DNA from: a virus
Reading direction: 5' to 3' (one strand)
DNA length: 64,000 nucleotides
Virus record (IMG/VR): IMGVR_UViG_3300012017_000779
Span: 18,179 to 82,178 of that record
Below the pieces are notes generated by a model that ran no database searches, was not told the DNA's origin, and worked only from the letters and a program-made list of their open reading frames with translations. Of this stretch, positions 21,282 to 55,540 are shown in pieces. The stretch's first letter is position 1. Each line of letters starts with the position of its first letter. A program made the translations under genes and the position numbers.

Positions 21282-23930
21282 TTAATAATTAGGATATACT
21301 GTATAAACATAACCTCCATACTCAAAGGATTCACCACCATATTTATGATTGTCCATATAAATTTTAATACAATTGTTTAAAGCATTACCTGATTGATCTT
21401 TACAATGTTCTTCTGCATCTTCATAAGTATTTTTTCTTTTTGTACTATCAAGTGTTTTATCAGTTGGAGTATATGTTACTCTTCCACCTGGTCCAGCATC
21501 AGTTTGATAGTTAGGATACATTTGATTAAGAGCATCAGTTTTCCATTTATTAGTTACTGCAGTATTATAAGCATTTCTTAAGTTTTGTCTACCTTGTAAC
21601 TTAGCATTATCAAACTGTTGATTAGCAATAGTATTTTTATCAAAAACTCTATTTGCCATTTGTTGGTTTAACATAGATTCTTGATTTCTTATACCTACTT
21701 GTGTACCTTCAAACTGGTTTGCTATGTTTACATTCTGATTATTTATATTACTCAAAGTATTTGCAGCTTGTGCAGCAGCATTTCCTTGAGTTGCAGCATT
21801 TCTGGCACCTAATCCTTGAGCACCTGCAAAAGATGCAGAAGCTTGAGAAGCAATATTTGCTTGTTCAGATTGTGCACCTAATTCTCTTGTAGGATCTAAA
21901 AATGTAGGTCTTGGTTCTTCAAGATCAACTCTTGCTTCCCATGGCATATACTTTTTAATACTTGCTAAATCAGATACAGCACCCATAGTATTTACATTAT
22001 CTTGTAACCACCATTCAGCAGGTTTTCTTTCACCAGGTACAACTTTATCAGTAGTTGTAGTAGTTGAATCTTCTTTAGTTTTTTCTTCTGTAGTTTTTGT
22101 TGTTTCATAACATGATGCATCATCAGCTATACAATTTCCATCTTTATCTACTGGAGCTTTTTTAGTATTACCTTGAGCATCTTTATATATACTACCATCA
22201 GTTTTTTTACAAAGACAAGGATCTTTTGCTTCATCTGGTAACTTTTCAAAATCAAAATTTATAGGTGTTCTTGAAGATGTAAAAGCTCCAAAATCAGAAT
22301 CAATTCCTTGTCCTGATGTGTTGTCAAAACCAAAATCACTTATAAGACTAGACTTTAAATTAGTTAATTCATTTTCAGTATAGGCTGGTCTTCCAGAAGC
22401 AACTTTTTTAGCATTAAGTTCTTTTACTTTATTAGGTATATAATCATTATTAATCCAAGTTTGAAATTCTTTAACTTTAGGATTATTTTTTCCTGGTCCA
22501 CCTGGCTTATTTATTTCTTCTAATAATTCAGCATATTCTGGATATACTCCATCCCATTTAGCAAAACTTGTTAAGTTTTTTTCAGCATTTCCAAAACCTA
22601 TTTTAGAAGGTTTTTGAACATCCTCATATTCATCAACACCAACAGCTTCATCATTAAGTTTAATACCATATTCTTTAGTATAATCAGTTTTTGACTGTTG
22701 TTTTGTTTTATTTTTTTTATCACCAGGACCACCTACAACATACTTAGGCATACCACCATAAGCCATTTCATATGGATCATCATAAAAAGGCATATCATAG
22801 CCACCCATAGACATACCATAAGCTGCCATAGGAGCTTGTTGCATCTGTCTTGGATCTTGTTCTTGTCCACCTTGCATTTGTTGCATAACACCCATTACAA
22901 GTTGTTGTACTTGATCTTCAGGCATTCCTAATTCTACAAAAATTTGTGCAATTGCTTCAGGAGGAACTTGACCTTGCAATAACTCAACAGTTAACTCTTC
23001 AGGTTCAGCACCTTGTTGTAAAGCCTCTGCAACTTGTTGCATAATCTGCATCATTTGTTGATCTTGACCACCTTGTTGTGGTTGCTGTTGAGCTTGTTGT
23101 TGTTGCATCATCATCATTTCTTCTTCAGATGGTTGTTGCATTCCTTCTTGAGCTCTTCTTAATCTTCTCATTCCACCATATCTCATCATTTCTTCTTGTG
23201 ATTGTGCAGTTGGTTCACCATTAGGCATTTCCATAACTTCTTCTTCCTCTTCTTGAGGCATGTTATTATTATTAGATTGCTGTTGACCTTTTGGATTTTC
23301 TTTTTTAGGAATTAAATCTTCTTCAGTAATACCATTAGCTTCCATGTATGGTTCAGATAATTTAGGGATTCCTTGAGGAAATCCTTTTTTAGATTCCTGA
23401 GCAAGAGCAAGAGCACCTAATTTAATAACATAATTTTTAATCATCATTTCAGCAGTTTTTATATCTAACTTATCTGAATTACGATCTTGTAAAATTTCTC
23501 TATATCTATTTATATCAAATTTTTTAGACATTTCTGCAGGAGTATAACCACCTTTTTTTGTAGGCATGTTAAACATTTTTAATAATACCGGATCATTAAT
23601 CATCATAGCTTTGGTATCACTAAAAATAAAACTATCATCTGGAAGATTTAATGGTACACCACCTTTAGTATGTCTTGGACCTTCTATATTAAAAAATGAA
23701 GGAATTTTACTGCCATCTATATTACCTATTACAGTTTCTCCACCTTCAGCTTCTAAGTTAGCATCTTTTCTAGGTACCGCAGTTATACTTTTAGTAACCT
23801 TGATATTAGAATGATCTTTAAAATTAGTGTTGCTATCACCAAATGATGACACATCATTTTTTAAAGAACCATCTACTTGATAGCCAACTTTTGCTTTTGG
23901 TAAAGATTTTATTCTTACTTTATAGTACAT
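21282..23930 (-). CDS. Internal cargo protein (882 aa) with Gln/Met-rich low-complexity tracts and xxxxGG motifs
   Basis: N-terminal EAEGGETV...GPRHTKGGVPL...FIFSD block typical of crAss-like cargo proteins; Ala/Gln/Asn-rich coiled C-terminus. Confidence 0.65.
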   Translation of the reverse strand: MYYKVRIKSLPKAKVGYQVDGSLKNDVSSFGDSNTNFKDHSNIKVTKSITAVPRKDANLEAEGGETVIGNIDGSKIPSFFNIEGPRHTKGGVPLNLPDDSFIFSDTKAMMINDPVLLKMFNMPTKKGGYTPAEMSKKFDINRYREILQDRNSDKLDIKTAEMMIKNYVIKLGALALAQESKKGFPQGIPKLSEPYMEANGITEEDLIPKKENPKGQQQSNNNNMPQEEEEEVMEMPNGEPTAQSQEEMMRYGGMRRLRRAQEGMQQPSEEEMMMMQQQQAQQQPQQGGQDQQMMQIMQQVAEALQQGAEPEELTVELLQGQVPPEAIAQIFVELGMPEDQVQQLVMGVMQQMQGGQEQDPRQMQQAPMAAYGMSMGGYDMPFYDDPYEMAYGGMPKYVVGGPGDKKNKTKQQSKTDYTKEYGIKLNDEAVGVDEYEDVQKPSKIGFGNAEKNLTSFAKWDGVYPEYAELLEEINKPGGPGKNNPKVKEFQTWINNDYIPNKVKELNAKKVASGRPAYTENELTNLKSSLISDFGFDNTSGQGIDSDFGAFTSSRTPINFDFEKLPDEAKDPCLCKKTDGSIYKDAQGNTKKAPVDKDGNCIADDASCYETTKTTEEKTKEDSTTTTTDKVVPGERKPAEWWLQDNVNTMGAVSDLASIKKYMPWEARVDLEEPRPTFLDPTRELGAQSEQANIASQASASFAGAQGLGARNAATQGNAAAQAANTLSNINNQNVNIANQFEGTQVGIRNQESMLNQQMANRVFDKNTIANQQFDNAKLQGRQNLRNAYNTAVTNKWKTDALNQMYPNYQTDAGPGGRVTYTPTDKTLDSTKRKNTYEDAEEHCKDQSGNALNNCIKIYMDNHKYGGESFEYGGYVYTVYPNY

Positions 23931-23940
23931 AATTAATTAT

Positions 23941-26900
23941 TTATAAAAATTCAACTTGTCCACCTTCTGCCATAAAAGCTCTAATTTGATCTTCAGACAT
24001 GTATGTTATTTTTTCACCACCCTCAGCATAAGTTAATTCATCTTCTTCATCTTCTTCTGTATAAGGATCATAATATTCTTCTTCATCTATGTATCCACCA
24101 TATTGTGCAGATCTACTGTTCCACATTTGACCTTGTTCATCAGGTCTATATAATCCTGAATTAGTATCATAATCTCCTTTATCTCTACTAGGATCAGAAG
24201 CATAAAGATTATTAGAACTTAAGTTTTCATACATTTCATTTTCTTTTTTTCTACTTTCTATATTTTTTCTTATACCATCTATAACATCTACACCTGCATT
24301 AAATGTTTGTAGTCTTGCTTCATTTTTTGATGTATCAGCATTAGCACCAAAAGCAAGGTCTTTTTTATTTTCTACATCAACAGCATACATATCATTAAAG
24401 GATGGTTTATCTTCATTTATTTGAAGATTTCCACTTTTATCTTTTATAACTCCAGGTTTTTCACCAGTCAATGGATTTCTATAATCTTTATCTATTACTC
24501 CTGGTTGTTTTATATCTTGAATATTATTTCCAAAGTCAGATCCTGTAGATCTTTTTTTAACAACTTTACCCATAAAATCTACACAATCTCCAGCTGCATT
24601 TTTAGTAGAACCCATTGGACATTCTCCTGGACTCATAGAAGTTTGAAAACCATCTTCTGCTCTAGGAAGAAACATATCTAAATTACCACCATATTGCATT
24701 TCAGTATTTCTTGGTCCTGATGTATTAATTAATTGATCAGATGAAAAAGGAATTCCTTGTAATTCTTTTGATTGAGTATTTCTTAATTGATTCATTGTAT
24801 CCTGATTAGATTTAATATCTAATCTTCCTGTATTACGATAAGGATGATCTAAAGGAAAATCTGCATAAGGATCATATTTTTTAATTGGCTTACCACCTAT
24901 TGGATTACCATATTCATCTAAACCTTGCATTCTAAGTTTTAAATTATTTATAAAACCATAACCTTGTCTTCCAGATCTTTGATTTTTATTATTTTCTCTA
25001 GTATCTTCAGGATAATTATCTCTAACTGGTTTTTTTGCACCTTGACAATTTGGTGAATTAGGAAAATCTAAACAATATCTATCACGACCTCTTTGAGAAG
25101 CATCAGTACCTTTTGATGTAGTAATAGGTTGACCAGATTGACCATTAAAATACATAGTATATTTTTTTGGTCTACCTGACCAGAATCTAGTTTTATCTAC
25201 ATTTATACTAGATAAGTTACCCATATTAATAGGCATAACAATTGTCTTTCCTGTTCTTGGATCATAAACTCTTTGAATTTCATTTCTATAAGTTCTTTGT
25301 GGACTTAATATATTTCCGGGAAAATAATTTTCAATAAATTTTCTAACTCCACCACCTCTTTGAAAATAAGGATCAGTTGTATCTATAGAATTTGAATAAT
25401 CCATATCTTGTTGAGTAGGATCATAACCACCTTGATTAAATTCATATAAATCAGGATTCTCACTATCTACAAAACCTCCATTTTCAAGATTAGGATCAAA
25501 AAATCTTCCAAGTCTTTCCATAAATGATGGATCTCTATAATAATAATCAGATTTCTTTTTTGTTTTTTTAGTAGTAGTTTTCTTTTTATTAGTAGTTGTA
25601 AATTTAGGAATTTGATTTTCAGGAATTATAACTTTATTTTTTTTAATTTCTATTAAAGTAGGAGAAGAATTTCTTTTTACTTCTGGTTTATAAACACTAC
25701 TTATTATTGGTGTATTTGCTACAGTTGCATTTGGATTAACTGTTGCTTGTGTAATTACTTCTTTAGAAGTACCCGTTGGTAAAGTTGAAAATTTTCCTGG
25801 TTGTAAATAATCAGGTATTTTATCACTATTAGCATCTGTTGTAAAAAAACCATGAGGTAAAAGTGTACCTTGTTTTGGTAAGTCTGTACTTTGAGATTTA
25901 TTTATTATAGTTGCAACAGTACTTGACACTGTACTTTGTGAAGATTTAACAACAGGTTTTTGTGATACTACATCTGGATTATTTCCATTAGCAATATCTA
26001 CAAGTGGAGAATATCCATAAAAATCTATTCTATATTTACTTGGTTTTCCTGTTAACCAATTTGATTTTCTAACATCTACACTATAAGAAGGATGATCATA
26101 AGAATGCATTTCATTATTGCTATTTTCATTTCTTCTTGGAAAACAATTTGTTTGTCCATTTTCATCTTCAAAACATGTATTGTTTCTTTCATTAAATTGT
26201 CCTTTAACAGCATAATCAGTTGCATCTACATAACCATCTTTATTATAATCTCCTTCTTCAAATGTTGTTGTAGGATAATCATTAACATTAAAATAATCTA
26301 TATTATCTTCTCTATCTCTTCTATTTTGACCTGTTATAAAATCTTTTAATTGGTTTGCTCTATATTTCAACTCATTACCACGAACAACTTTAGGATCTCT
26401 TGAACCTGCAGAACCACCTCTTCTCATCATATCATTTTGAGGTTGCATTTGTTGTTGCATCATTTGATCATATTCTTGTTCAGCTTGTTGTTTTAAGTTA
26501 AACATTTCTGTTTCTTTCTTTAAACTACTTATAAAATTATTTAGTTTTTGTTTTCTAATTTTTTTACCAGTAGGATCTCCTGCTTCAGGATCTTCATCAG
26601 ATTTTTTTTCTTCACCACCTTCTGCTTTTTTTGCTAATTTTAAAATAGAATTAACATAAACTCTTTTATTTCTTTTATAATTTCCTCCCATTTTCATTTC
26701 AGGAGGTGCATCTAAAGCATATTCACTAGATACATCAGATTCTTCTTCTTCTTCTTCAGAATTATCTTCATTTTCATATTCACTATTTTGATTTATATCT
26801 TTACTAGCATAATGATTATAATACATTCCTGTTGCAGGATCTACAGTTCCATTTAACATATCTGCCATATTATATGGTAAATAAGTTTCTATTTCTGGAA

Positions 26901-27909
26901 ATACTATACCAGGAGCAGTAGGATTAAAAGGATATGTAACTTGACCATTTTGTTGTATTTCTGTATCAACATCTTCTACTTCTTCTCCATCTTGAGCTTT
27001 ATAAAGTCCACCATAAGCCATTTGTCCACCATACTTTTCTTCATCATCATCTTCCTCTTCTTCTTCATCTTCATCTTCATTTAATAACATATCAGATACA
27101 AAACTATTATTTTGAGTATCTTCAGCAGCATCTACTTCTTCTTGTGATTCATAAGGCTCTTCTTCAACAACTTCTTCTTCAACAACTTCTTTTTCATCTT
27201 CATCTTCATCAAAATCATATTCATAATCAGAACCATTTTGTTCAGTTAAATAATTTTTTACTTGACTTACTAAATTTATAGCTTCCATTGGATCTACATC
27301 ATAAAAGTTTGCTAATTTAAAAGCAATCTGTTGTTCATCAATATCATTATTTAAGTCATTAGAAATTATATTAACTAATTCATCTTGTGATAAATCTTTT
27401 TTTTCTTCTGAATTAGAACCAGGATAACCCATTTCACTAACATCAGGTACTCCACCTAATTGATATTTAGGAAAAGTACCATTTTTAATACGTTGTAAAG
27501 CATTATACTGACTTTGTGTTGCTAAATTATTATTTTTTATTACAGCTTCTATTATTTTTTCATGATACTTTCTAGTTGATGGACTTATATTAGATATATT
27601 TAATACATCTTGAAAAAATGCTGGATTTTTTATTTGAATTTTTGATGATGCTGTAGTTGCTTTTTTAATTCCTTCACCATATTTAATAGCTCCTGCAGCT
27701 CTAGCTGCATTATTAGATTTGTCTATAGCTTTTGCTAGTTCAGTTGCCTTTTGTATTTTATCAGATTCATCAAAATTCATAATAAGTTGTTTTCCATATT
27801 TTAAAACATCTTTTACAATTCTTCCTTTTTGAGCTTTTTCTAAAAACTGACCTGTCTTATTAAGATACTTACCATTTCCATCAGGTGATTTATAAATTCT
27901 AACTTTCAT
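23941..27909 (-). CDS. Acidic, low-complexity internal protein (1322 aa) punctuated by xxxxGG motifs
   Basis: ORF track; Glu/Asp tracts, many GG motifs and an internally duplicated module. Confidence 0.65.
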   Translation of the reverse strand: MKVRIYKSPDGNGKYLNKTGQFLEKAQKGRIVKDVLKYGKQLIMNFDESDKIQKATELAKAIDKSNNAARAAGAIKYGEGIKKATTASSKIQIKNPAFFQDVLNISNISPSTRKYHEKIIEAVIKNNNLATQSQYNALQRIKNGTFPKYQLGGVPDVSEMGYPGSNSEEKKDLSQDELVNIISNDLNNDIDEQQIAFKLANFYDVDPMEAINLVSQVKNYLTEQNGSDYEYDFDEDEDEKEVVEEEVVEEEPYESQEEVDAAEDTQNNSFVSDMLLNEDEDEEEEEDDDEEKYGGQMAYGGLYKAQDGEEVEDVDTEIQQNGQVTYPFNPTAPGIVFPEIETYLPYNMADMLNGTVDPATGMYYNHYASKDINQNSEYENEDNSEEEEEESDVSSEYALDAPPEMKMGGNYKRNKRVYVNSILKLAKKAEGGEEKKSDEDPEAGDPTGKKIRKQKLNNFISSLKKETEMFNLKQQAEQEYDQMMQQQMQPQNDMMRRGGSAGSRDPKVVRGNELKYRANQLKDFITGQNRRDREDNIDYFNVNDYPTTTFEEGDYNKDGYVDATDYAVKGQFNERNNTCFEDENGQTNCFPRRNENSNNEMHSYDHPSYSVDVRKSNWLTGKPSKYRIDFYGYSPLVDIANGNNPDVVSQKPVVKSSQSTVSSTVATIINKSQSTDLPKQGTLLPHGFFTTDANSDKIPDYLQPGKFSTLPTGTSKEVITQATVNPNATVANTPIISSVYKPEVKRNSSPTLIEIKKNKVIIPENQIPKFTTTNKKKTTTKKTKKKSDYYYRDPSFMERLGRFFDPNLENGGFVDSENPDLYEFNQGGYDPTQQDMDYSNSIDTTDPYFQRGGGVRKFIENYFPGNILSPQRTYRNEIQRVYDPRTGKTIVMPINMGNLSSINVDKTRFWSGRPKKYTMYFNGQSGQPITTSKGTDASQRGRDRYCLDFPNSPNCQGAKKPVRDNYPEDTRENNKNQRSGRQGYGFINNLKLRMQGLDEYGNPIGGKPIKKYDPYADFPLDHPYRNTGRLDIKSNQDTMNQLRNTQSKELQGIPFSSDQLINTSGPRNTEMQYGGNLDMFLPRAEDGFQTSMSPGECPMGSTKNAAGDCVDFMGKVVKKRSTGSDFGNNIQDIKQPGVIDKDYRNPLTGEKPGVIKDKSGNLQINEDKPSFNDMYAVDVENKKDLAFGANADTSKNEARLQTFNAGVDVIDGIRKNIESRKKENEMYENLSSNNLYASDPSRDKGDYDTNSGLYRPDEQGQMWNSRSAQYGGYIDEEEYYDPYTEEDEEDELTYAEGGEKITYMSEDQIRAFMAEGGQVEFL

Positions 27910-27926
27910 AACTACATATTATATAT

Positions 27927-27958
27927 TTAATATACTAAATTTTAATTTATTCAATAAA
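27927..27958 (-). promoter_or_regulatory. Putative promoter TTTA-N20-TATATTAA upstream of 27909
   Basis: Shares tatatatttaatatactaaa exactly with the 40997 site; the palindrome TAAACTTA-A-TAAGTTTA (27955-27971) overlaps it. Confidence 0.7.
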
Positions 27959-27968
27959 CTTAATAAGT

Positions 27969-30900
27969 TTAATTAATACCTTTTGCTTTCATATAATTTA
28001 AAATACGTTTGTATTGATTATAAGTAATATCAGGTTTTGTTTCAAGACCTTTTTCATTAGCATGTTTTTTTATATAGGCATTTCTAATTTGCTCATGTGT
28101 AATAATACTTTTTAAATTTAAATTATATTTTTTTGCAATTGGAGCATAATACTCTACAAATGAAATAACTTGTTGATCAGTTAATGGTTTTTTTTGTGTA
28201 TCTCCTTGAAATTCTACACCAATACTAAAATCATTAACATCTTCTCTTCCATTCCATTTTGATTTTCCTGCATGAAAAGAAACTTGTTCAGGAGATGCAT
28301 ATATAGTTCTAGAACCATCTTCTTCAATAACTACGTGAGAAGAATTTTGTCCAGGTGTCATAAATTGTTTTTTTACTTCAGCATTATTAGTAATAGGATC
28401 ATTATAAGCAGTATGATGTAATACAAAGTTTTTAATTTCATTTTTTAATTTATGACCAGCTTTATAACTGTCATCTTTTTTTGTTCTTACATTAGGCATA
28501 TCATATACATACGTTTCTTTAAATTTGTTAACAGGAACATTATATTTTTTTATATATAAACCATTACCTCCAGAAGTATTTTCAGCATCATAATTAACCA
28601 ACCTTTGTTTAGTTAACTTACCATCTTTATAAGAAAGACCTCTTGCATATGTTCCATTATCAAGACTCCATGCTTCAAGATATTTACTGTTTCCTTTTAA
28701 TCTTTTAAATTCTTTTTTAATATGAGAAACACTTCCTGATACCAATGTTTGTTCTTTTGTTGTAGGATTAACAAAAACAACTCTACCTCCTAAAATAGAA
28801 CCATAATAATCTTCTTCTGCTTTACCTTTTTTTGTTAAAATATTTAAAGCACCTTTTTTAAGTTTATTATTTTCTAATATTGTTATTTGAGGTTGCCAAA
28901 ATTTTGGATTTCCAGATCTTGCTCCATCTAAAGATATGTCATCAATAGAAACAATTTTATTCATAAATGTTTTAGAAAATTTCCAATCTTTATTATTTTT
29001 TAAATTTTTATAAATACCAGTATGTAATACTCCTTTGTTATCTAAAGCAAATACACTATTATCATCATTTATACCATTTACATTTGTTTTTTTATTATAA
29101 GGTTTTATATTAGCTGCCTTACTAAATGGATGAAATGTTGTAAATTCTAATCCATCAGATTCTATATCTTGATATTGACCTCTATTTCTACTACCTAAAA
29201 CTAAGTTAGATGTTGGAACAGTTTGTTGTTTAAACTGTCTATTTGGTTGATCATTTACATTTAATATAGTTTGTGATAAAGTTGGATTTTTATAATAATC
29301 TTTTACATTTATAGGTTCAGGTGATTCTATAACTTTTTTATCTTTAGTTTCTACTATACCCCAAGTTTGAAGTTTACGGTCTAAACCATTATTAAAAAGT
29401 TTTTTTTGATTATCCAACCAGTTATCAAAACTTTTTATTTCTTTATAAGTTGATTCAAAAAATGAATCTTCTGGTTTAACAATTTTATTTTTTATATTAG
29501 AATTATTATTTTTAGTTATTTGTAAACTATTTTTAATAGGTTCAACTTTACTTATATTTTTTTCTTTTAAAATATTTTCTTTTGCAATGTTTTGCAATTT
29601 ATTTTTTAAATCTAATTCAAAATTAGATTTAGTTTCAATAGTAGGTATTTTTCTAATAGTTTTTTTTATAGGTTCAGTTGTTTGTTTATATTTTTTTATA
29701 TTTTTATCATCAACTTTTTCATAAGCTATATCATCAATATCTTCCATACCAAAAAATCTTTTAAATCTTTCTGTATATGTAGGATCTCTTGTATAATCAT
29801 AAGATTTACCTTTTTTATTAAAACCACCATTTTGATAATTATCTATTTCCTCTACTATATAACCACCTTCTTTATATCTTTGTACTTCTTCTGGTGTTAG
29901 ATCTAATTCTACATAATCATTATTTTCTCCACCTTGTTTATATTGCCCTCTAAAACCTGTATTATAATCTTTTTTTAATTTTTCTAAATAGTTTTTATAT
30001 TCTATTTGTTTGTTTCTATCTAAATTTTTATAATCCATAAATGGATAAGTTTCATCAACATCAAACATTTTTTGACCTTTTTTTCCTACTACAGTATTTC
30101 TATCTAATAATATTGGTAAATCATAAGAATTATTAGGCATAAATTGAGAATTCCAATAACCATTATTAACTGCTAATTTATTCAATTTTCTACTTTTTAA
30201 ATTATGATATTTATTAAACCAATCTTGATAATTACCTGTACTATAATCTCTTGGTGAATGCAATTTAAACATATACTTTCCATAACCAGATGGTACGTCT
30301 GAAGTATATAAAGCATCTGCATAACTCATATCTGGCATACCTGATCTATAACCATATTGTTGCATAGGTACATGAGTAGCTTGATATTTAGCAATTGAAA
30401 TAGGATCATCAAAATTTACTCCTGCATTTTTCATATTTTCAAATTCAGATATTTTATTATTCCATGAAGGTTTTGACATATCATAAGGTCTATTAGTATA
30501 GTCCATAACTCCTTTACCATCTCTAGGTACTGAACCATCAACACCTCTAAATTTAGTTGCTTCTCTATTTAAAGCTAGTTTAGTTAACTTATTTGTTCTA
30601 TCTGTACTTCTAGCTGCATAATTTAAATCTTGAAAATCTTTACCTATAAGCTCTTCTTTTTGTAAGTTTTTAATAAATTGTCTTCTTGGTAAAAAACCAG
30701 AAATTTCTTTTAAATTTTTAGAAGAAAAATCATATTTAGAAAGGTCTATTTTAGGAGAACCTGATAATTGTTTAGGAACTCCTTTAAATCCTTTTATTAA
30801 ATTTTTAGATGCATTATAAGCAGGTTTAAAAACTTGTTTACCTAAACCTAATCCTAAAAAACCTAGTGCATTAACTCCTGTTTCAAAAGAAGCATCTCCT

Positions 30901-33152
30901 AAAGTATTCCATGAAGGATTATTAATAAAATTACTTTGAGATTTTACAACATCACTTTTTGAATCTCCTTGATTATAAAGAGCATCAGCTCCAAAATATG
31001 CTGCTACAGAATTACCAAGATTTAATTTACCTCCTGTTGCATCTGTAATTTTTTTACCTAATGGTAAAGGTGCTTTTACAGATGTTTTTGTTGCAGTCCA
31101 TAAAGGTTTTAACCATTTTCCTGCTTGTAAAACCATTTTTGGTGCACCTCCTATTCCTGTCATTGGAGAATCTTCAAAAGGAGATCTACCTTTAGGTTGT
31201 GGTTTATAATTACTTTCTGGAGCATCTGTAAATAGTCTATTTAAAATATTAGAATGTTCCCAGTCATCTTGTCTTTTATTAAATTGACCTACTGTTTCTT
31301 TAATACCTTCATTATTAGCAAGACCTTTCTTTATTTTACTATCTTCTTTTTCTTTTTGAATTGCTTTTTCTTTTTCTTCTGAACTTTTTTTAACAAAAGC
31401 TTGTATATTATTTTTATATTTAGGATCAAAAGACCAGTCTAAAGGTTTTTGATAAATATTATTTACTCTTGTATTATCAGAAGAATTAGATGAAACTTTA
31501 GACATACTATCATCAACAGGTTTAGCCATCTTATCTAAAACTGCTGTCCTAGCTTTAACATCTCCTTTATTTAAAGGTTGATATTTACCAGACCTATTCC
31601 AATCTACTTGCCACTTACCATTAACTTTTTTGTAATTACCCTTACTTCCTTTTACAGTGTATATACCACCATCTTGGTAATTATCTATTTCTTCTACTAC
31701 ATAACCACCTCTTCTATATTCTTCTATCTCATCTTCATCAAGATCAGCTTCTATAAATCCTGGAGAAACATCTTTATAATTTTCTGCAAAATAATTAGCA
31801 TCTTCATTTGAATCAAATCTTATAGCTTCATTAGATTCCGGACCATAGTCTCCAAGTTGTAGTACACCATTCTCATCTTGTATTTGTGGTACTGCATAAT
31901 TATCCATGCTTGCCATGTAATGAGAACCAGTATCTCCATTATCAAATTGATAAGGATTGTCTGGTAGGTTAATCATTCTTTCAGCAGCAGGGTTACCAAA
32001 CTCATTAGCATATGCTAGTCTAGCTTTCATCATACCAGTCATTGCATCTTTGTTACCACCATCTTGTTTTTTAGGAAACATAGATTTACCATCTTTTTCA
32101 AATTGTTCTTCACGGACTCTTGCTTCTCCTTCTTCTGTAGTTGGATCTTGATACATTAAAGCATTTGCACCTGGAAAACCTTCTGTAAATTCTTGTAATT
32201 TATTTCTTGGTATAAATTGTAAATTAGGATCAGCTTTGATCATTGCATCTGTTTGTGCTTCTAATTCAGTATTTCTTCTGTCATAGTAATTACTTATTGC
32301 TTGATCTGATGCTACAGTATTATTAGGTCTTTGACCTAAAAAACCAGCAGTACTTGCACCACCTCCTAAGTTTTGCAAATGGTGATACTTTTCATGTTCT
32401 GTCCACCAACCATTATTTTCTATTGATCCAGGTCTTGTATCTTGACTTATTTCACCTGTTGCTGCATTATATCCTGTATTCTCATCAGTTTCAATTACTT
32501 CTGGTTCTTGCCATTCTACACATTGACCATTATAAATAATATATCCTTCTGGACATTTTGATTCTCCACCATCTTGTGCATGTACTAATCCTTGACCACC
32601 ACACTCATGACATGTAGTAATATCTTTACCACCATCTTCAGCATCCCATTTCCAGCCACATTTTTTACATGTTACTTTTTTAGTAAGTAAAGCACCACCT
32701 TCTGCATAATACTTTGAGTTAGGATCAAATACTTTATTCTTTCTAGACTTAGGTTTTGCAAATAAAAAATTTTGTGTAAATAATTTATTAGTTGCACTAA
32801 GACTTCTTGAGTAACCTTTAGAATTTTTTTTATTAGGCATTTTTAAAACAGAACCACCTTTACGCATAAAATCTTCAGGTTGTTCTAACTCAGGTTGCAT
32901 TCTATAGTTAGTAGTAATTTCTTCTCCGGGTTTTAAATTTTTAGAAGCATAGATAAATCTTTTATTATCTATTTTTTTACTATAAGCTGTAGGATTTTTT
33001 TCATTATGATTATGATTTCTTCCAATTTCAGATGCGGGTTGATCATCAACATGAGCTAATCCAATTACCTCACCTTTTTTAAAAGGTGCTTTAGTAAATA
33101 AACCTTTACCAGCTCCTTTTATACTAGATTGTTTTGTTATATATTTTTTCAT
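27969..33152 (-). CDS. Modular polyprotein (1727 aa): SET domain, Zn ribbon, HExxH zincin, unknown modules, C-terminal N-acetylmuramoyl-L-alanine amidase (Amidase_2)
   Basis: SET: GAGKGLFT...NHNEKNPT...GEEITTNY. Zn ribbon: CKKC..CHEC. Zincin: HEKYH (32382-32396)...EGEAR. Amidase: VLHHTA...SSHVVI...FHAG...SIGVEF...ITHEQI...KPD. Confidence 0.85.
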   Translation of the reverse strand: MKKYITKQSSIKGAGKGLFTKAPFKKGEVIGLAHVDDQPASEIGRNHNHNEKNPTAYSKKIDNKRFIYASKNLKPGEEITTNYRMQPELEQPEDFMRKGGSVLKMPNKKNSKGYSRSLSATNKLFTQNFLFAKPKSRKNKVFDPNSKYYAEGGALLTKKVTCKKCGWKWDAEDGGKDITTCHECGGQGLVHAQDGGESKCPEGYIIYNGQCVEWQEPEVIETDENTGYNAATGEISQDTRPGSIENNGWWTEHEKYHHLQNLGGGASTAGFLGQRPNNTVASDQAISNYYDRRNTELEAQTDAMIKADPNLQFIPRNKLQEFTEGFPGANALMYQDPTTEEGEARVREEQFEKDGKSMFPKKQDGGNKDAMTGMMKARLAYANEFGNPAAERMINLPDNPYQFDNGDTGSHYMASMDNYAVPQIQDENGVLQLGDYGPESNEAIRFDSNEDANYFAENYKDVSPGFIEADLDEDEIEEYRRGGYVVEEIDNYQDGGIYTVKGSKGNYKKVNGKWQVDWNRSGKYQPLNKGDVKARTAVLDKMAKPVDDSMSKVSSNSSDNTRVNNIYQKPLDWSFDPKYKNNIQAFVKKSSEEKEKAIQKEKEDSKIKKGLANNEGIKETVGQFNKRQDDWEHSNILNRLFTDAPESNYKPQPKGRSPFEDSPMTGIGGAPKMVLQAGKWLKPLWTATKTSVKAPLPLGKKITDATGGKLNLGNSVAAYFGADALYNQGDSKSDVVKSQSNFINNPSWNTLGDASFETGVNALGFLGLGLGKQVFKPAYNASKNLIKGFKGVPKQLSGSPKIDLSKYDFSSKNLKEISGFLPRRQFIKNLQKEELIGKDFQDLNYAARSTDRTNKLTKLALNREATKFRGVDGSVPRDGKGVMDYTNRPYDMSKPSWNNKISEFENMKNAGVNFDDPISIAKYQATHVPMQQYGYRSGMPDMSYADALYTSDVPSGYGKYMFKLHSPRDYSTGNYQDWFNKYHNLKSRKLNKLAVNNGYWNSQFMPNNSYDLPILLDRNTVVGKKGQKMFDVDETYPFMDYKNLDRNKQIEYKNYLEKLKKDYNTGFRGQYKQGGENNDYVELDLTPEEVQRYKEGGYIVEEIDNYQNGGFNKKGKSYDYTRDPTYTERFKRFFGMEDIDDIAYEKVDDKNIKKYKQTTEPIKKTIRKIPTIETKSNFELDLKNKLQNIAKENILKEKNISKVEPIKNSLQITKNNNSNIKNKIVKPEDSFFESTYKEIKSFDNWLDNQKKLFNNGLDRKLQTWGIVETKDKKVIESPEPINVKDYYKNPTLSQTILNVNDQPNRQFKQQTVPTSNLVLGSRNRGQYQDIESDGLEFTTFHPFSKAANIKPYNKKTNVNGINDDNSVFALDNKGVLHTGIYKNLKNNKDWKFSKTFMNKIVSIDDISLDGARSGNPKFWQPQITILENNKLKKGALNILTKKGKAEEDYYGSILGGRVVFVNPTTKEQTLVSGSVSHIKKEFKRLKGNSKYLEAWSLDNGTYARGLSYKDGKLTKQRLVNYDAENTSGGNGLYIKKYNVPVNKFKETYVYDMPNVRTKKDDSYKAGHKLKNEIKNFVLHHTAYNDPITNNAEVKKQFMTPGQNSSHVVIEEDGSRTIYASPEQVSFHAGKSKWNGREDVNDFSIGVEFQGDTQKKPLTDQQVISFVEYYAPIAKKYNLNLKSIITHEQIRNAYIKKHANEKGLETKPDITYNQYKRILNYMKAKGIN
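29823..31710. repeat. 46-bp direct repeats (29823-29868 and 31665-31710) encoding the linker GGY(V/I)VEEIDNYQ(D/N)GG
   Basis: 42/46 nt identical, 1842 bp apart and in frame. Confidence 0.85.
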
Positions 33153-39747: not shown

Positions 39748-40409
39748 TATCTAAGTGTATTTTGACTATCATCAGGTCCATCTGTTGGAATTGACATAGT
39801 CATAGTTAATTCTTTTATTACAAATTGTTCTACTTCAGAAAATAAATATTCTGGTAATGAGAAAGGTTCATCTTGTCTTACTGTACATTCTTTTGTATCA
39901 CATGTTTCAATAGTTCCTTCAAAGATTGCTTCCATTCTTATTGCTTCCCAATCTACATTAGGACAATATATGTAGCCATCTAAATACCAAAAATAAAAGT
40001 TTCTATTATATTTCCAAGTTGTAGTTTTAGTCATAGAAACCCAGGTACCTGGATCTGTTCTAAACATTTCTATACTACCATCTATTGAAGATGTGGTACG
40101 TATAATAGGTCCTGCCATTCCATTTAATATTCCTGGAATCTTTTCTTTTGATCTTTTAAAATAACAACCTGAATATACTCCAAGACAACCAGCTTCTACT
40201 TTATCTACATCTATTAATTCTATATAAGGAAGAACTCTAAATAAAGAACTAATTTTCATTAGTCTAAATTGATTGTCTTCTCTTTTAATTAATGTTTGTG
40301 AATATTTTAATAAAGATGAATATATTATTCTATCAGTTAAAAAAGCATCTTCTTTAACAGCTTTTAATGTATTTCTTACTCTTGATATTGTTTCACCAAT
40401 TGTTGTCAT
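39747..40409 (-). CDS. Tail ring/tube protein (220 aa)
   Basis: Y(F)WYLDGYIY, AIFE and the C-terminal PTDGPDDS pattern; translationally coupled to both neighbours. Confidence 0.65.
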   Translation of the reverse strand: MTTIGETISRVRNTLKAVKEDAFLTDRIIYSSLLKYSQTLIKREDNQFRLMKISSLFRVLPYIELIDVDKVEAGCLGVYSGCYFKRSKEKIPGILNGMAGPIIRTTSSIDGSIEMFRTDPGTWVSMTKTTTWKYNRNFYFWYLDGYIYCPNVDWEAIRMEAIFEGTIETCDTKECTVRQDEPFSLPEYLFSEVEQFVIKELTMTMSIPTDGPDDSQNTLR

Positions 40410-41115: not shown

Positions 41116-41126
41116 TAAAATTTTTA

Positions 41127-42782: not shown

Positions 42783-42794
42783 TATATTTTATTT

Positions 42795-45353: not shown

Positions 45354-45368
45354 AAGTTTACTATTAAT

Positions 45369-45400
45369 ATAATATACAAAATTTTATTAAGACTTGCAAC
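45369..45400 (-). promoter_or_regulatory. Putative promoter GTTG-N20-TATATTAT upstream of 45353
   Basis: Same motif and spacing as the other five sites. Confidence 0.6.
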
Positions 45401-45412
45401 TATTGTTTATTA

Positions 45413-46663
45413 TTAACAAGGATTAGATAATATAGTAGAAGATAAACCTACTTGCCAAAATTGTCTTTCATCACATATAATATTTTTATTAGAACTTCCA
45501 CCTACTGTTGTTACATAATCAATAGATGCAGGATCTACAAAATTTTTATTTGTTCCATCCCATTCTTCTATACCTATTTCTGATGCAACATTATCAATTC
45601 TATTTGCATAACCAGTTTTTGCACCAGTGTTCGAAGCAAAAACTAATCCTATAATTTTTCTAACTCCTCCAAAATCAGCAATTAATGCTGAACCTGAATC
45701 ACCACCTATAATAGGATTAGCACATAAAACACTTAAACTAGGATCATTTTCAGGTTTAACAAATTCAAGTTGATCTTGAAAATTTACATTAGTGAATGTA
45801 CCTTGTTTTCTATATTGTATTGGAAAAGCACTAAATATAGATTGTATTCTCATTGGACATGATGCACCACCTTTAGGACCTGTACTTCTTCCTGAACTAT
45901 AAATCATAGGATTAGTTGTAAGTAAATTATTTATTTCTGCAGTAGTTGCAAAAGGTAAAGGATTAGTATATGGATCACCAGCTTGCATTACTGAAGATGA
46001 TATTGTTCCTGTACCTATATCACTTTGATTTATAGAAAAAATACCACAATCTACTTTATTATAACCAGTTTGTTGTATAGGAACATATCTTAATGATCTT
46101 CCAATTTCATAATTTAGTGGTGGAGGAGAAAATTCTCCACTTTGATATACCTTATTTATTGGAGAATATTCATTTTGATATACTCCATTTATTAAACTTC
46201 TATCTGATGTATAAAAAGCATCTTGTATTAAAACGTGATTATTTGTTACACCAACTAAAGCTTGAGTATTAGTATCAACAGCAATAAAACCAAGTGTACC
46301 TACAGAACCCGGCAAATTAGATATTTGCATTGACAAACCTCCAACTAAAGGTCTTGTGAATGCTCTGTTTGCTGCTGAGTTTGGACCCATAAATGTGCCA
46401 CAATATGCATTACAAGCTAATAACTCTACTTTACCTGCTTCATATACATCAGTTTTTAAAACTTGATTTCCTATTGTAATTGAACTAGGAATAATTTCAG
46501 AATCTAAAAGTTCAGATATTGATTTTTTTTGGTCTACACCAAATCTAATACATAACTCATCTGTTTGAACATTTCCAACAAATTTATATCCATAAGAAAA
46601 ACTGTTTGCATTAAAAGCATTTTGTTCTGCTAATTCTTGAATTTTTAATTTAATATCTTCCAT
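45413..46663 (-). CDS. Trypsin-like (S1/PA clan) serine protease, Nal1-like (416 aa)
   Basis: GTLG...TNNHVL (His), VDCGIF (Asp), GRSTG and GGDSGS (Ser); the N-terminal GYK...KK...IP...TDV segment resembles the Nal1-type N-domain. Confidence 0.85.
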   Translation of the reverse strand: MEDIKLKIQELAEQNAFNANSFSYGYKFVGNVQTDELCIRFGVDQKKSISELLDSEIIPSSITIGNQVLKTDVYEAGKVELLACNAYCGTFMGPNSAANRAFTRPLVGGLSMQISNLPGSVGTLGFIAVDTNTQALVGVTNNHVLIQDAFYTSDRSLINGVYQNEYSPINKVYQSGEFSPPPLNYEIGRSLRYVPIQQTGYNKVDCGIFSINQSDIGTGTISSSVMQAGDPYTNPLPFATTAEINNLLTTNPMIYSSGRSTGPKGGASCPMRIQSIFSAFPIQYRKQGTFTNVNFQDQLEFVKPENDPSLSVLCANPIIGGDSGSALIADFGGVRKIIGLVFASNTGAKTGYANRIDNVASEIGIEEWDGTNKNFVDPASIDYVTTVGGSSNKNIICDERQFWQVGLSSTILSNPC

Positions 46664-46677
46664 TTTTATTATTTAAA

Positions 46678-49506: not shown

Positions 49507-49515
49507 TATATAATT

Positions 49516-49722: not shown

Positions 49723-49741
49723 TTGGTTGGTTTTTAAAAGT

Positions 49742-50284: not shown

Positions 50285-50295
50285 AGTATTTATAT

Positions 50296-50332
50296 AAAAA
50301 AAGGGGAGGAGTATGAAACTCTTCTCCCCTTT
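50296..50332 (-). terminator. Intrinsic terminator after the auxiliary capsid gene
   Basis: Minus strand reads AAAGGGGAGAAGAGT-TTCAT-ACTCCTCCCC-TTTTTTT. Confidence 0.8.
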
Positions 50333-50357
50333 CTAGTTAATAATTAATTATCTGTTT

Positions 50358-52067: not shown

Positions 52068-52102
52068 TGTTTTTAGTTTTTAGTTAATAATATAATATAT
52101 AT

Positions 52103-52133
52103 ATAATATAATAAAAAGTTTTGAAATAACAAA
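52103..52133 (-). promoter_or_regulatory. Putative promoter TTTG-N19-TATATTAT upstream of 52067
   Basis: Same motif family as the other five sites. Confidence 0.6.
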
Positions 52134-52134
52134 A

Positions 52135-52587
52135 CTATTTTAAAAATTTTAATTTATATTTTGCAGAATTTAAACTTGATTTAACTGTGTCAAGTTCATT
52201 TACTATTTCTGAATATGGCATTTTAGATTGTAATCCATTTACCATATCAATTAACATTCTAATATAATCAAGACCATCTTCAACAGTATTTAAAGTTTTA
52301 TTTGGTGTTTCATTATATTTTAAAAGTGTTTCTGCTGCTCCTTGATATCCTTCAGCTAAATTATCAGCATGATCAACTAAAGCATCATATAAATCATTAA
52401 GAGCTTTATGAGCAGCAAATGATCCTACACCAGTTACTTTAAGATGTAACTTATGAAAACTTGTAGCAGCATTCATTAATTCTGATACACATGCTGCAGT
52501 CATTGTATCTAGAGATCCTCCTGCGGGTGCACTTGAATATGATACAGTTGATTCAGTATTTCTTTTTAAAAGTCTAGGCTTTTCCAT
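52135..52587 (-). CDS. Ferritin-like / Dps-like protein (DUF5856-like, 150 aa)
   Basis: FHKLHLKVTG.GSFAAHKALNDLYD...ADNLAE matches the Dps-type H..HW...G..F...H......Y.......D.lAE ferroxidase pattern. Confidence 0.8.
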   Translation of the reverse strand: MEKPRLLKRNTESTVSYSSAPAGGSLDTMTAACVSELMNAATSFHKLHLKVTGVGSFAAHKALNDLYDALVDHADNLAEGYQGAAETLLKYNETPNKTLNTVEDGLDYIRMLIDMVNGLQSKMPYSEIVNELDTVKSSLNSAKYKLKFLK

Positions 52588-52589
52588 TT

Positions 52590-53288: not shown

Positions 53289-53291
53289 GTT

Positions 53292-53438
53292 TTATTTATT
53301 TTTAGCCATTGCTTTAAATGTTCTTGCTAATGCTTTTCTCTTTGGTGTACATGTAGGTTTAGACATAGGAGTACAGTAACCTTTATGTTTAGGGTTAACT
53401 GCTTTTTGTATCCATTTCTTATCCTTCTTTTCAGCCAT
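53292..53438 (-). CDS. Small basic protein (48 aa), not in the ORF track
   Basis: Hand translation MAEKKDKKWIQKAVNPKHKGYCTPMSKPTCTPKRKALARTFKAMAKNK*; fills the gap between its neighbours. Confidence 0.8.
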   Translation of the reverse strand: MAEKKDKKWIQKAVNPKHKGYCTPMSKPTCTPKRKALARTFKAMAKNK

Positions 53439-53443
53439 TATTT

Positions 53444-54112
53444 TTAATTTTTATTTTTTAATACTGGATATTTTTTTTGTTGTTTTAGTTCTGCTGCCTT
53501 ATCCCACTGTTTCATTTGTTCTTTTATTGTTTTTCTTTCAAAAAGTTTTTGTGAATTAGTTTCTGAATTAAATTTTTTTACATCTTCAGCTACTCTAGGA
53601 AACATACTTTTTACTTTATCTTTTGGATAATTAAACTTTTTAGTAGCAGTTGTTTTAGATTTAGATACAATTTTTTTAGCTACAGGTTTAAGTGTTTTAG
53701 CTAATGGTTTAGTTGTTCTAATAGCCAATTTTATAATACCACCTAACTGAGCTTTTGGTAATTTTTTACTACCAGCACTTTTTTTAGCACCAACAATTTT
53801 GTCAGCAAAAGTTGCTTTGTCATATGGAGGAGCTAATGCTGCAAACTTAGCTGCTTTAGTTGCACCACCTTTTTTAGCAAAACCATATTGACCAGAAGTA
53901 CCAAGATTTTCTTGAGGTATACCATACATACCACCAGTACTTTTTTTAATTATTCTTTTAGTAGTAGTTCCTCCTACTGCCATTTTTGGTGTTGTAGGTT
54001 TTGTTATTTTTTTAACAACTTTTTTATCAAATGGTTTTATAATAGATTTTATTATACCACCCTTTTGCATTTTTTTCATAGAACCTCCGCAGCTCATGCA
54101 TTTTGTTTTCAT
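53444..54112 (-). CDS. Lys-rich basic protein (222 aa) with six GG motifs
   Basis: ORF track; N-terminus paralogous to that of 55136-55540. Confidence 0.75.
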   Translation of the reverse strand: MKTKCMSCGGSMKKMQKGGIIKSIIKPFDKKVVKKITKPTTPKMAVGGTTTKRIIKKSTGGMYGIPQENLGTSGQYGFAKKGGATKAAKFAALAPPYDKATFADKIVGAKKSAGSKKLPKAQLGGIIKLAIRTTKPLAKTLKPVAKKIVSKSKTTATKKFNYPKDKVKSMFPRVAEDVKKFNSETNSQKLFERKTIKEQMKQWDKAAELKQQKKYPVLKNKN

Positions 54113-54147
54113 TTTTTATAAATTTAAAATTACTAATAGTTTATTAT

Positions 54148-54507
54148 TTAATTATATAAATCTCTAACTGCTTTTTCATAAGCTTCTTTTTTAGTTAATT
54201 TTTTAGGATTTACTCTTTCATTAATTGCTTTTTGTAAATCTTTTTTAGCTTTTGATTGCTGCATAGTTGCATTTCCATTTTTATTAGATCCTTTAGTAAC
54301 AGGTTTACCTTCAGCAACTCTTATTTTTTGACCTGGTGAAGTAACTATTTTTTTAGATTTAATTTTTTTAGGAATATTACTTTTTAAAGGAGTTTTATAT
54401 ATACCTGATTTAACTAGTTGTTTAAAAGTTGACTTATTAGTTGGTGTAAATAATTTAATAATACTTTTTACAATTGCTCCTTTTTGAGCTTTTGGTAATG
54501 CTTTCAT
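54148..54507 (-). CDS. Lys-rich basic protein (119 aa)
   Basis: Begins LPKAQKGAIVKSIIK, similar to repeats in the 222-aa neighbour. Confidence 0.75.
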   Translation of the reverse strand: MKALPKAQKGAIVKSIIKLFTPTNKSTFKQLVKSGIYKTPLKSNIPKKIKSKKIVTSPGQKIRVAEGKPVTKGSNKNGNATMQQSKAKKDLQKAINERVNPKKLTKKEAYEKAVRDLYN

Positions 54508-54522
54508 TTTGTATATTTTAAA

Positions 54523-54795
54523 TTAACAATTCCATTTTCTTAAAGAAAGAGCTTTTCTTGTAGGTCTTCCTTTTTCATCTTTCATAGGTCCAGGCATTCC
54601 TGACATTCTAGCACAAAAACTTTTTCTTCTCTTTGCTGCTTTGCCATTTGGATCTAACTTAGATGGCTTAGTAGTGACTGCCATCTTAAGTTTAGATCCC
54701 GGATTAGCTGCTCTATAACTGGCTACTCCCTTTGCATTTAAACCTCCGGTTTTATTCTTACCTTCTTTTCTTGTCCAAGCTGCTGTCTTTGCCAT
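54523..54795 (-). CDS. Small basic phage protein, DUF6321-like (90 aa)
   Basis: GGLNAKG...NPGSKLK...RRKSFCARM...LRKWNC. Confidence 0.7.
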   Translation of the reverse strand: MAKTAAWTRKEGKNKTGGLNAKGVASYRAANPGSKLKMAVTTKPSKLDPNGKAAKRRKSFCARMSGMPGPMKDEKGRPTRKALSLRKWNC

Positions 54796-54797
54796 AA

Positions 54798-55136
54798 CTA
54801 TGCTTTTTTAACTCTTCTTCCCATACCTACTTTAGACTTTTCAGCTTTCTTAGCAGCTAGTTTAGAAGGAGTTAGTTCATACTTTGTTTTAGGAGTATCC
54901 TTAGATACTTTTTTTGTAGGCCGGCAGTATTCATTTGAACCACCGGCACCACAAGCTTTACCTGATTTTGTATCTTGCCATTTCTCTGCTTGCCATCTTT
55001 TAAGGTTTGAACCAGCTTTAGTTTTTCTAACTGTACCAGAACCTTTCCTACATTTAGCAATTGCTTGAGAAGCCCTTGCTGAAGGAAACACAGCATACTG
55101 TGCTTTTACTTTAGAATAACAAGCATCTTTTGGCAT
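54798..55136 (-). CDS. Small basic phage protein, DUF5872-like (112 aa)
   Basis: KDACYSKVK...PSARAS...LKRW..EKW...CRP...TPKT. Confidence 0.6.
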   Translation of the reverse strand: MPKDACYSKVKAQYAVFPSARASQAIAKCRKGSGTVRKTKAGSNLKRWQAEKWQDTKSGKACGAGGSNEYCRPTKKVSKDTPKTKYELTPSKLAAKKAEKSKVGMGRRVKKA

Positions 55137-55540
55137 TACTTTTTCTTTTTCTTTTTATCTTTATCACTTATATATTTAGCTGCAAGTCCTAAACCTCCCA
55201 TAAGACCTCCTGATACTAAACCTACTTTTTTAAGATCTTTATTAAAAGCTCTAGTTCTTTCTACCTTAGATACTCTATTTAACAAATTATTAAGTTGTGT
55301 GGTTTCTGAATCTTTTACTTTTTTTAGTGTTTCTTTTTTTACCATATTTGATATAGTTCCAGGTGCTTTTTTGTTAACATCAATTAAACGTTTTGCTTGT
55401 TTAGTTAAAGCTTTATTTTTTTCTGCTGCTCTAGCACCAATTTTTGCACCTTTTATACCATATTTAATAGCTCCTTTTATAATACCACCTAATTGCATTT
55501 TTTTTGTTGTCCCACCACAACTCATACATTTTGTTTTCAT
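55136..55540 (-). CDS. Lys-rich basic protein (134 aa) with a hydrophobic Gly-rich C-terminal segment
   Basis: MKTKCMSCGG start shared with 54112; VGLVSGGLMGGLGLAA followed by poly-Lys. Confidence 0.75.
   Translation of the reverse strand: MKTKCMSCGGTTKKMQLGGIIKGAIKYGIKGAKIGARAAEKNKALTKQAKRLIDVNKKAPGTISNMVKKETLKKVKDSETTQLNNLLNRVSKVERTRAFNKDLKKVGLVSGGLMGGLGLAAKYISDKDKKKKKK

Follow-up and report, generated by a model that had tools for sequence, protein, structure and literature searches.

CrAss-like phages rank among the most abundant viruses of guts and oceans. In phage crAss001, gp45 is the cargo protein C1, which was found in virions by mass spectrometry (PMC10172136; Pfam family PF25725, crAss_CARG1) and extends from the portal into the tail barrel (PMC10172136). 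A second described system, the polyvalent proteins, unites unrelated enzyme modules in one late-gene polypeptide whose delivery along with the DNA is predicted; some of these proteins include a zincin-like domain, and processing by a metallopeptidase domain has been proposed (Iyer et al. 2017, PMC5512222). No joint peptide or cleavage motif is presented there, and neither 'glycine' nor 'crAss' appears in its text. Our study concerns a short peptide, hydrophobic-x-x-Gly-Gly, that recurs in proteins encoded by a 64,000-nucleotide (nt) stretch of viral DNA (the window), which spans positions 18,179 to 82,178 of IMG/VR record IMGVR_UViG_3300012017_000779, an 82 kb record that is ~69 % complete. 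Sequence comparison supports this peptide as a genuine, conserved, protein-level signal that is specific to the presumed cargo proteins and sited at module boundaries.

Every long open reading frame (ORF) of the window lies on the minus strand and the genes form a crAss-type structural module, with PHROG matches to the large terminase, portal and major capsid protein (all crAss-type) and Pfam matches to crAss ring proteins 1 and 2 (38692-40409). An 1845-amino-acid (aa) gene occupies the place of the crAss001 muzzle-position gene, gp44, and past it come three proteins of 1727, 1322 and 882 aa. As with gp45, these are encoded between the muzzle-position giant and the RNA-polymerase-associated giants, and gene order relative to crAss001 suggests that they are cargo carried inside the capsid. 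The nearest cultured relatives are remote, namely Leptolyngbya phage Lbo-JY46, with 28.5 % capsid protein identity, and the still more distant Cellulophaga phi4:1 group.

The motif in the presumed cargo proteins

The first-pass annotation had listed copies of the motif in the three large proteins and in small basic ones, and all of them were recovered in the translated minus-strand ORFs, at the genes named. Counts of [MYF]xxGG were compared with 2000 residue shuffles per protein, and the proposed enrichment in cargo over shell was borne out: 26 copies were present in five proteins, against ~2.8 expected. The 882-aa protein had 5 (0.61 expected), the 1322-aa protein 9 (0.80), the 1727-aa protein 7 (1.12), the 222-aa protein 3 (0.13) and the 134-aa protein 2 (0.10), and for each of the five the observed count was equalled in ≤5 of 2000 shuffles. 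The portal, capsid and tail proteins had been said not to repeat the motif, and the remaining 22 window proteins, which comprise these and also the RNA-polymerase-associated giants, indeed totalled 6 copies with ~6 expected; the giants (999, 2338 and >3736 aa) carry no motif. The motif-bearing proteins of the window are as follows, all on the minus strand.

27969..33152, minus strand: 1727-aa multi-module presumed cargo protein; SET-like region, CxxC ribbon, HExxH region, two internal helix-GG-strand joints, C-terminal Amidase_2; 7 [MYF]xxGG plus AQDGG and KKQDGG
23941..27909, minus strand: 1322-aa presumed cargo protein; 9 [MYF]xxGG; basic N-terminal end (MKVRIYK...EKAQKG) and acidic C-terminal end
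21282..23930, minus strand: 882-aa presumed cargo protein; conserved N-domain; Q/M/E-rich linker with MRYGG, SMGG, MAYGG and YVVGG; C-terminal KYGG..FEYGGYVYTVYPNY
53444..54112, minus strand: 222-aa Lys-rich protein; KKMQKGG 14-19, PKMAVGG 42-48, LPKAQLGG 118-125
55136..55540, minus strand: 134-aa Lys-rich protein; N-terminus MKTKCMSCGGTTKKMQLGGIIK, paralogous to that of the 222-aa protein
54148..54507, minus strand: 119-aa Lys-rich protein; start MKALPKAQKGAIVKSIIK, a single-Gly variant of the motif

The consensus in these proteins is [MYF]-[QAKR]-x-G-G, with an extended form [LFM]-P-K-[AMY]-[QAK]-x-G-G and single-Gly variants (LPKAKVG, LPKAQKG, EKAQKG) near the N-termini of the 882-, 119- and 1322-aa proteins. 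The glycines of the motif use the GGT codon in 75 % of cases, against 62 % elsewhere, and the neighbouring codons vary, which places the signal at the level of protein and not of DNA; a Shine-Dalgarno-like GGAGG or a repeated oligonucleotide was rejected as its cause for the same reason. Three known peptide signals were also considered and dropped: the sortase LPXTG site (wrong consensus), the prepilin leader (no hydrophobic core or Glu5) and the split intein (ends far too short, and no Cys, Ser or Thr at the junction). Three further small basic proteins, of 48, 90 and 112 aa, lie among the Lys-rich ones (53292-55136); they lack the motif and are nearly unchanged in G001, and the 112-aa protein matches DUF5872.

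Conservation extends well beyond this contig. Seven IMG/VR relatives show the same enrichment in syntenic genes, and whole-proteome scans were made of four genomes, comprising our own contig (G000), G001 (complete), G002 (91 % complete) and G005 (complete). Significant enrichment was confined to two blocks, one of small Lys-rich proteins encoded right behind the capsid genes and one of cargo proteins that follows the 1845-aa muzzle-position gene. Counts for the rest of the ORFs matched expectation (observed/expected 8/8.5, 18/19.3, 16/13.4 and 26/16.1 over the four genomes). The small Lys-rich proteins vary greatly among the phages and nearly all carry KK[MY][QA]xGG within about their first 20 residues. 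Public data contain at least 1902 homologs of the 882-aa protein, of which the top 120 hold 564 copies of [MYF]xxGG where 87 were expected. The motif also occurs in two virion proteins of cultured phages that were identified by mass spectrometry, crAss001 gp45 (FSAYGG, AFAEGG, LKAFGG, NAFGG and MFAYGG) and Cellulophaga phi4:1 gp040 (FQAGG, YQNGG, FQIGG and FQSGG), and in the gp45 homologs of eight gut crassviruses.

The resemblance to gp45 deserves comment. Like the proteins studied here, gp45 has repeated Gly-Gly peptides (five of the form x-A-[YFE]-G-G, at 209, 263, 332, 427 and 562), and these border the segments resolved by cryo-electron microscopy (cryo-EM). In our phage, by contrast, the unit comprises the separate 1322- and 882-aa genes together with an enzyme-rich third protein, and the consensus differs. 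Pfam PF25725 matched crAss001 gp45 at E 2.3e-66 and gave no match to the 882-aa protein at E up to 10, nor any in six-frame searches of G000, G001, G002 and G005. Homology of the 882-aa protein to gp45 was also sought by phmmer against the PDB, by hhalign (7 and 53 sequences) and by Foldseek on a predicted model; as every test was negative, we do not assign the 882-aa protein to crAss_CARG1.

The first-pass annotation had placed the motif at domain boundaries of the 1727-aa protein, and this description held: MRKGG (96-100) stands after the SET-like region, AQDGG (192-196) follows the CxxC...CxxC ribbon and KKQDGG (360-366) follows the HEKYH (HExxH) region. The domain names need qualification, in that 'SET' is a sub-threshold Pfam match (E 0.0066) and the sole basis for 'zincin' is the HEKYH at residue 253, for which neither profiles nor the PDB gave a match; Amidase_2 is matched at E 1.6e-16. 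By joining these elements in one chain, the 1727-aa protein resembles a polyvalent protein, with the difference that its metallopeptidase-like domain is not conserved along with the motif.

Comparison with relatives suggests that the boundaries are places of exchange. Of 196 internal BLAST endpoints, 21 % fell within ≤5 residues of a second Gly, compared to 6.2 % for random placement (0 of 2000 trials as high), and homology broke exactly on the second Gly at residues 153, 196 and 1075 of the 1727-aa protein, 853 of the 1322-aa protein and 253 of the 882-aa protein. In L003 the SET-like module is a 183-aa gene of its own, the ribbon module has been inserted directly past YAEGG and is closed by AQDGG, and the motif flanks the indels by which the 222-aa protein differs from its near-identical ortholog in G001. 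These alignments indicate that the motif marks joints between swappable modules, at which homology breaks above chance. They also suggest that the cargo evolves much more quickly than the shell, as the major capsid protein (56671-58287) shows 96 % identity in G001 and G002 and 82 % in G005, whereas the cargo proteins (21282-33152) of the same genomes are mosaic and 31-69 % identical.

Structure prediction with AlphaFold2 (AF2) was used only to separate order from disorder and to examine one helix, as the predicted local distance difference test (pLDDT) score averaged 52.5 in the model of the 882-aa protein and 47.1 in that of the last 173 residues of the 1322-aa protein. In the model of the 882-aa protein, all motifs lie in segments of pLDDT <50 between confident helical domains. 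An alignment of 53 homologs of this protein showed G376/G377, G865/G866 and G872/G873 to be invariant and G392/G393 nearly so, while the linker around them is variable. The motifs are thus placed in predicted disordered linkers, in which few positions other than their glycines are invariant or nearly so.

A simpler origin for such a pattern would be a Schellman-type helix stop and turn (hydrophobic C3, Gly C', hydrophobic C'') that binds no specific partner and is spread by recombination of module cassettes. The pattern hydrophobic-x-x-G-G-hydrophobic is indeed frequent (MAYGG-M, YRRGG-Y, MQKGG-I), the swaps and indels are bounded by the motif, and the helix predicted near the C-terminal end of the 1322-aa protein halts just ahead of AEGG. 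However, many copies follow a Pro (PKYVVGG, PKMAVGG) and stand in predicted disorder, their glycines do not change across thousands of homologs in linkers that are otherwise free to vary, and the varying codon context shows that the motif is not kept at the DNA level. A helix stop would also leave unexplained the specificity to cargo, the motif being absent as an enriched peptide from all other proteins of the same genomes, and we consider this the least probable of the readings weighed here.

Restriction to presumed internal proteins might instead reflect a packaging tag, each copy of which would bind one conserved procapsid receptor (scaffold, portal wing or inner capsid wall), with avidity gained from many copies. 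The T4 capsid-targeting sequence and encapsulin cargo-loading peptides are short signals that direct proteins into an HK97-fold shell in this manner. The N-terminal 30 residues include a copy in the 882-, 1322-, 222-, 134- and 119-aa proteins and in the relatives' small proteins, and the contrast between a capsid protein that is 96 % identical (G001, G002) and its diverging cargo means that a conserved receptor could read a conserved tag on fast-changing proteins. Nevertheless, the receptor remains a postulate and the 1727-aa protein has no N-terminal copy. The T4 sequence, moreover, is a single N-terminal copy removed by gp21, whereas here there is no Peptidase_S77 and the copies are many and internal as well as terminal. 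On balance we regard a tag of this kind as an unlikely reading, although it overlaps with the reading that we prefer and that is set out below.

Paired ends at the gene junction

A more elaborate form of the motif was found where two cargo genes meet. The 1322-aa protein ends YMSEDQIRAFMAEGGQVEFL and, 10 nt on, the 882-aa protein begins MYYKVRIKSLPKAKVGYQV. The features of this junction, and of comparable sites in the window, are listed below; all are on the minus strand.

23944..24003, minus strand: 'C-cap' of the 1322-aa protein, YMSEDQIRAFMAEGGQVEFL; helix, GG, then a short acidic-hydrophobic tail
23868..23930, minus strand: 'N-cap' of the 882-aa protein, MYYKVRIKSLPKAKVGYQVDG; starts 10 nt past the stop of the 1322-aa gene
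27820..27909, minus strand: N-terminal end of the 1322-aa protein, MKVRIYKSPDGNGKYLNKTGQFLEKAQKG; conserved as MKK(K/R)VRIYK...FL.KAQEGG in L001, L002, L003 and L005
31653..31745, minus strand: first internal joint of the 1727-aa protein, ...DEDEIEEYRRGGYVVEEIDNYQDGGIYTVKG; resembles a C-cap fused to the next module
29808..29900, minus strand: second internal joint of the 1727-aa protein, ...LTPEEVQRYKEGGYIVEEIDNYQNGGFNKKG; BLAST match to the C-terminus of L001_425

Both ends were present in 54 of 54 distinct IMG/VR junctions. The upstream end has the form M-T-x-E-E-[IL]-x-x-[FY]-[LMI]-A-[NA]-G-G-[QE]-[VIL]-E-[YF]-[LI], the downstream start is a basic M-x-x-K-V-[KR]-I strand, and the gap between the genes is 4-12 nt. 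Strong conservation is seen in the five residues that follow the final GG of the 1322-type protein, and V5, I7, P11, A13, G16, Q18, V19 and G21 of the N-cap are invariant in the 53 homologs of the 882-aa protein. In the AF2 model, a helix at 1306-1314 of the 1322-aa protein is followed by non-helical AEGGQVEFL. A similar acidic end closes L001_425, L003_183, L005_1666 and L006_628, and two more lie inside the 1727-aa protein, fused to the next module; the module of the joint DEDEIEEYRRGGYVVEEIDNYQDGGIYTVKG forms the C-terminus of L003_183, L001_425 and L005_1666. In the cyanophage Leptolyngbya phage Lbo-JY46, a 674-aa protein (L008, 17334-19358) matches the C-termini of marine cargo proteins over its last 30 residues, best of all that of L003_1537 (E 3.6e-04), so that the end peptide may reach beyond phages of Bacteroidota.

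Two natural rearrangements bear on the function of these ends. On a marine contig (L071; IMGVR_UViG_3300017707_000735, 844-6159), the 1322-type and 882-type proteins form one 1772-residue open frame, an arrangement for which an assembly artefact is possible. At its joint, which reads SKYGG-VPHMKMGG-PKGRTG-QQVDYSL, the C-cap and the KVRIK strand are both gone. The opposite event is seen in the gut crassvirus cr112_1 (L035, NC_055881.1, 54-3103), where the C1 gene is split into genes of 326 and 516 aa by a free-standing homing endonuclease gene that overlaps both pieces. The N piece ends ...EKEIGRLIKEGYEIEYI, or in fuller form ...HSYGG-YLEGAEYDLDEKEIGRLIKEGYEIEYI, and the C piece begins MKIKILRIPSQ, or in fuller form MKIKILRIPSQIDSSNARGWNHAFGG-WLNT, and the seam peptide (WNKHSYGG / WNHAFGG) is duplicated over both pieces. 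Neither end peptide is present in unsplit crAss001 gp45 at the site that matches the split. The divided gp45 homolog of cr112_1 carries the same two kinds of end as the junction in our window.

The ends thus come with the split and go with fusion, in two distant lineages, as would be expected if they were docking peptides in place of a covalent link. Genes in pieces can arise by homing endonuclease insertion, as in the split nrdA of phage Aeh1. In polyketide synthase docking domains, and in the Aeh1 protein, short complementary C- and N-terminal peptides on consecutive polypeptides take the place of a covalent linker, and the ends described here are likewise present when the chain is split and absent when it is fused. 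They differ from polyketide synthase docking domains in having no sequence relation to them, in their setting, which is virion cargo and not an enzyme assembly line, and in that their binding is presumed. The loss of ends on fusion, and the breaks in homology exactly past GG, would not be explained by a packaging tag.

In literature searches we found the motif described nowhere, and neither PMC5512222 nor PMC10172136 describes a joint peptide or paired ends. Proteins of this kind are already covered by the polyvalent-protein concept (PMC5512222) and by the crAss001 cargo proteins (PMC10172136); the paired end peptides, their loss on fusion and their presence on split are new in this analysis and add a further testable claim.

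Possible cleavage or docking, and the crAss001 virion

The first-pass annotation had offered two readings of the motif, a maturation cleavage site and a capsid-targeting tag. The first was not supported by the comparisons made here, in which no protease co-occurred with the motif, and the second may hold in part, as a tag or docking role would fit better. If the cargo ORFs were polyproteins, a protease, packaged or supplied by the host, would cut them at GG or just behind it, in the style of adenovirus, African swine fever virus (ASFV) or phiKZ, and the Lys-rich leaders would be propeptides. The clan CE proteases of adenovirus, ASFV and poxvirus act on Gly-Gly sites that lie in internal or core proteins, some of them in short leaders at the N-termini of basic proteins associated with DNA, and our phage is similar in having Gly-Gly in internal-type proteins and short leaders on Lys-rich ones. 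The siting of the motifs at module boundaries in disordered linkers, the halt of homology exactly past GG and the KKMQxGG leaders of four genomes are all compatible with cutting.

A protease to perform it was sought in several forms. The HExxH domain, which like a DUF2201_N metallopeptidase encoded in the same genome would favour cutting, is absent from the motif proteins of L001, L002, L003 and L005, and among close relatives occurs only in the 1727-aa protein of the window. The DUF2201_N putative metallopeptidase, with a VWA-like domain, is a 395-aa protein outside the window (L011, G000:C1, 5527-6714) that nothing ties to the head; a GH16 glycoside hydrolase is encoded near it, also outside the window (4250-4960 of L011). 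A window gene of 416 aa labelled trypsin-like (45413-46663) is absent from G002 and G005, both of which have motif-rich proteins. It had no Pfam match at E up to 0.01, and a 60 % identical copy of it lies inside a 776-residue open frame in G001. In the four genomes, the clan CE proteases C5 (PF00770) and C48 (PF02902) gave no match at E up to 1, and Peptidase C39 (PF03412) of double-glycine leader systems and the prohead proteases S78 (PF04586, HK97 type) and S77 (PF03420, T4 type) were absent. The 415-aa gene between the portal and capsid genes had no Pfam or PHROG match, and no protease domain was found in the giant proteins.

The form of the motif also differs from a known Gly-Gly site. Adenain recognizes (M/I/L)-X-G-G↓X, with the hydrophobic residue at P4, whereas the hydrophobic residue here stands three before the first Gly, which would be P5 for a cut after GG and is thus one position farther from the glycines. 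The five conserved residues beyond the last GG of the 1322-type protein are unlike a discarded tail. Furthermore, the presence of docking-like ends on split genes and their absence from fused ones implies that linkage across the joint is important, and would be difficult to explain if fused joints were routinely cleaved.

The crAss001 virion provides evidence on both sides. Residues 425-552 of gp45 were modelled by cryo-EM as one portal-bound domain (Bayfield et al. 2023, PMC10172136), and that paper mentions neither cleavage nor a protease for crAss001. In our numbering, the modelled stretch begins at A425 of AFGG (425-428) and is continuous into W429, which suggests that this joint is intact in virions. 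The two resolved segments of gp45 begin at a motif or 4 residues past one, as a packaging tag could also predict; the portal separates the two segments, with motifs in the intervening stretch, and cutting would avoid the threading of 12 chains through it. We also re-read the matrix-assisted laser desorption/ionization (MALDI) peak lists of crAss001 (Shkoporov et al. 2018, supplementary file 14), in which bands 1-10 correspond to gp44, gp50 with gp47, gp49, gp26 and gp25. Taken together, our comparisons found no support for cutting at GG joints, and we consider general maturation cleavage improbable, about as much so as a pure packaging tag; it is most conceivable for the short leaders of Lys-rich proteins.

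The reading that we prefer, to which we give an even chance, is that hydrophobic-x-x-Gly-Gly is the uncut joint, or seam, of modular cargo that is packed and injected, and that its elaborated ends are docking peptides. Each exchangeable module would bear a seam peptide on its C-terminal edge, and modules would be gained, lost and swapped between phages directly past the second Gly. A joint that falls on a gene boundary would become two complementary ends, an upstream one of helix, GG and acidic tail (MT.EEI..FLA.GG.VEYL) and a downstream basic strand (M..KVRIKK.PKA..GYQV), which would dock and keep consecutive cargo proteins together non-covalently. The 1322- and 882-aa proteins would then be one unit, by gene order the counterpart of crAss001 C1, and such coupling could allow the cargo to be loaded and ejected in a set order. 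We infer the uncut state of the joints, the binding of the ends to each other, the location inside the particle and the purpose of the linkage alike.

Several observations weigh against this proposal. The docking of the two ends is suggested by their co-occurrence, and the 1727-aa protein lacks an acidic C-terminal end although the 1322-aa protein that follows it has a basic start. Because homology to gp45 is unsupported, the cryo-EM argument rests on gene order and resemblance of the motif, and intact chains in this phage and its relatives are a supposition drawn from sequence and analogy. In crAss001 gel bands 1-10, gp45 gave chance matches only and could not be identified at ~90 kDa, a result compatible with cut as well as with intact chains. 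The short GG-ended leaders of the Lys-rich proteins closely resemble the precursors of adenovirus pVII, which carries KMFGG↓AKKR, and a host protease, or a phage protease that we did not recognize, may conceivably act on the motif.

More tentatively, and with distinctly less confidence than in the seam itself, the cargo as a whole may be a non-covalent head-to-tail train, in which end peptides couple proteins, GG joints couple modules, the portal serves as an anchor and the order of exit is set. The joint would then be a plug-in site for effector cassettes, in a general 'plug and inject' code for phage payloads.

Other genes of the window and meaning for crAss-like phages

Two other features of the window were noted. 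The 2338-aa giant (11208-18224) contains a PD-(D/E)XK nuclease-like domain at residues 1791-1899 (DUF3799, E 4.4e-07), and a 150-aa protein within the head-tail module (52135-52587) matches PHROG 858, which is annotated as a starvation-inducible regulator or DNA-binding protein.

In summary, the motif bears on how crAss-like phages load and eject several megadaltons of protein. As the cargo evolves far faster than the shell, it would be the arms-race part of the virion, and a joint peptide would map the places where effector modules are exchanged. It would also provide a sequence rule for spotting cargo proteins in uncultured phages, and a direct test of the structure-based proposal for crAss001 that a single cargo chain traverses the portal. 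Should the ends indeed dock, they could be used as handles to load foreign proteins into phage particles.

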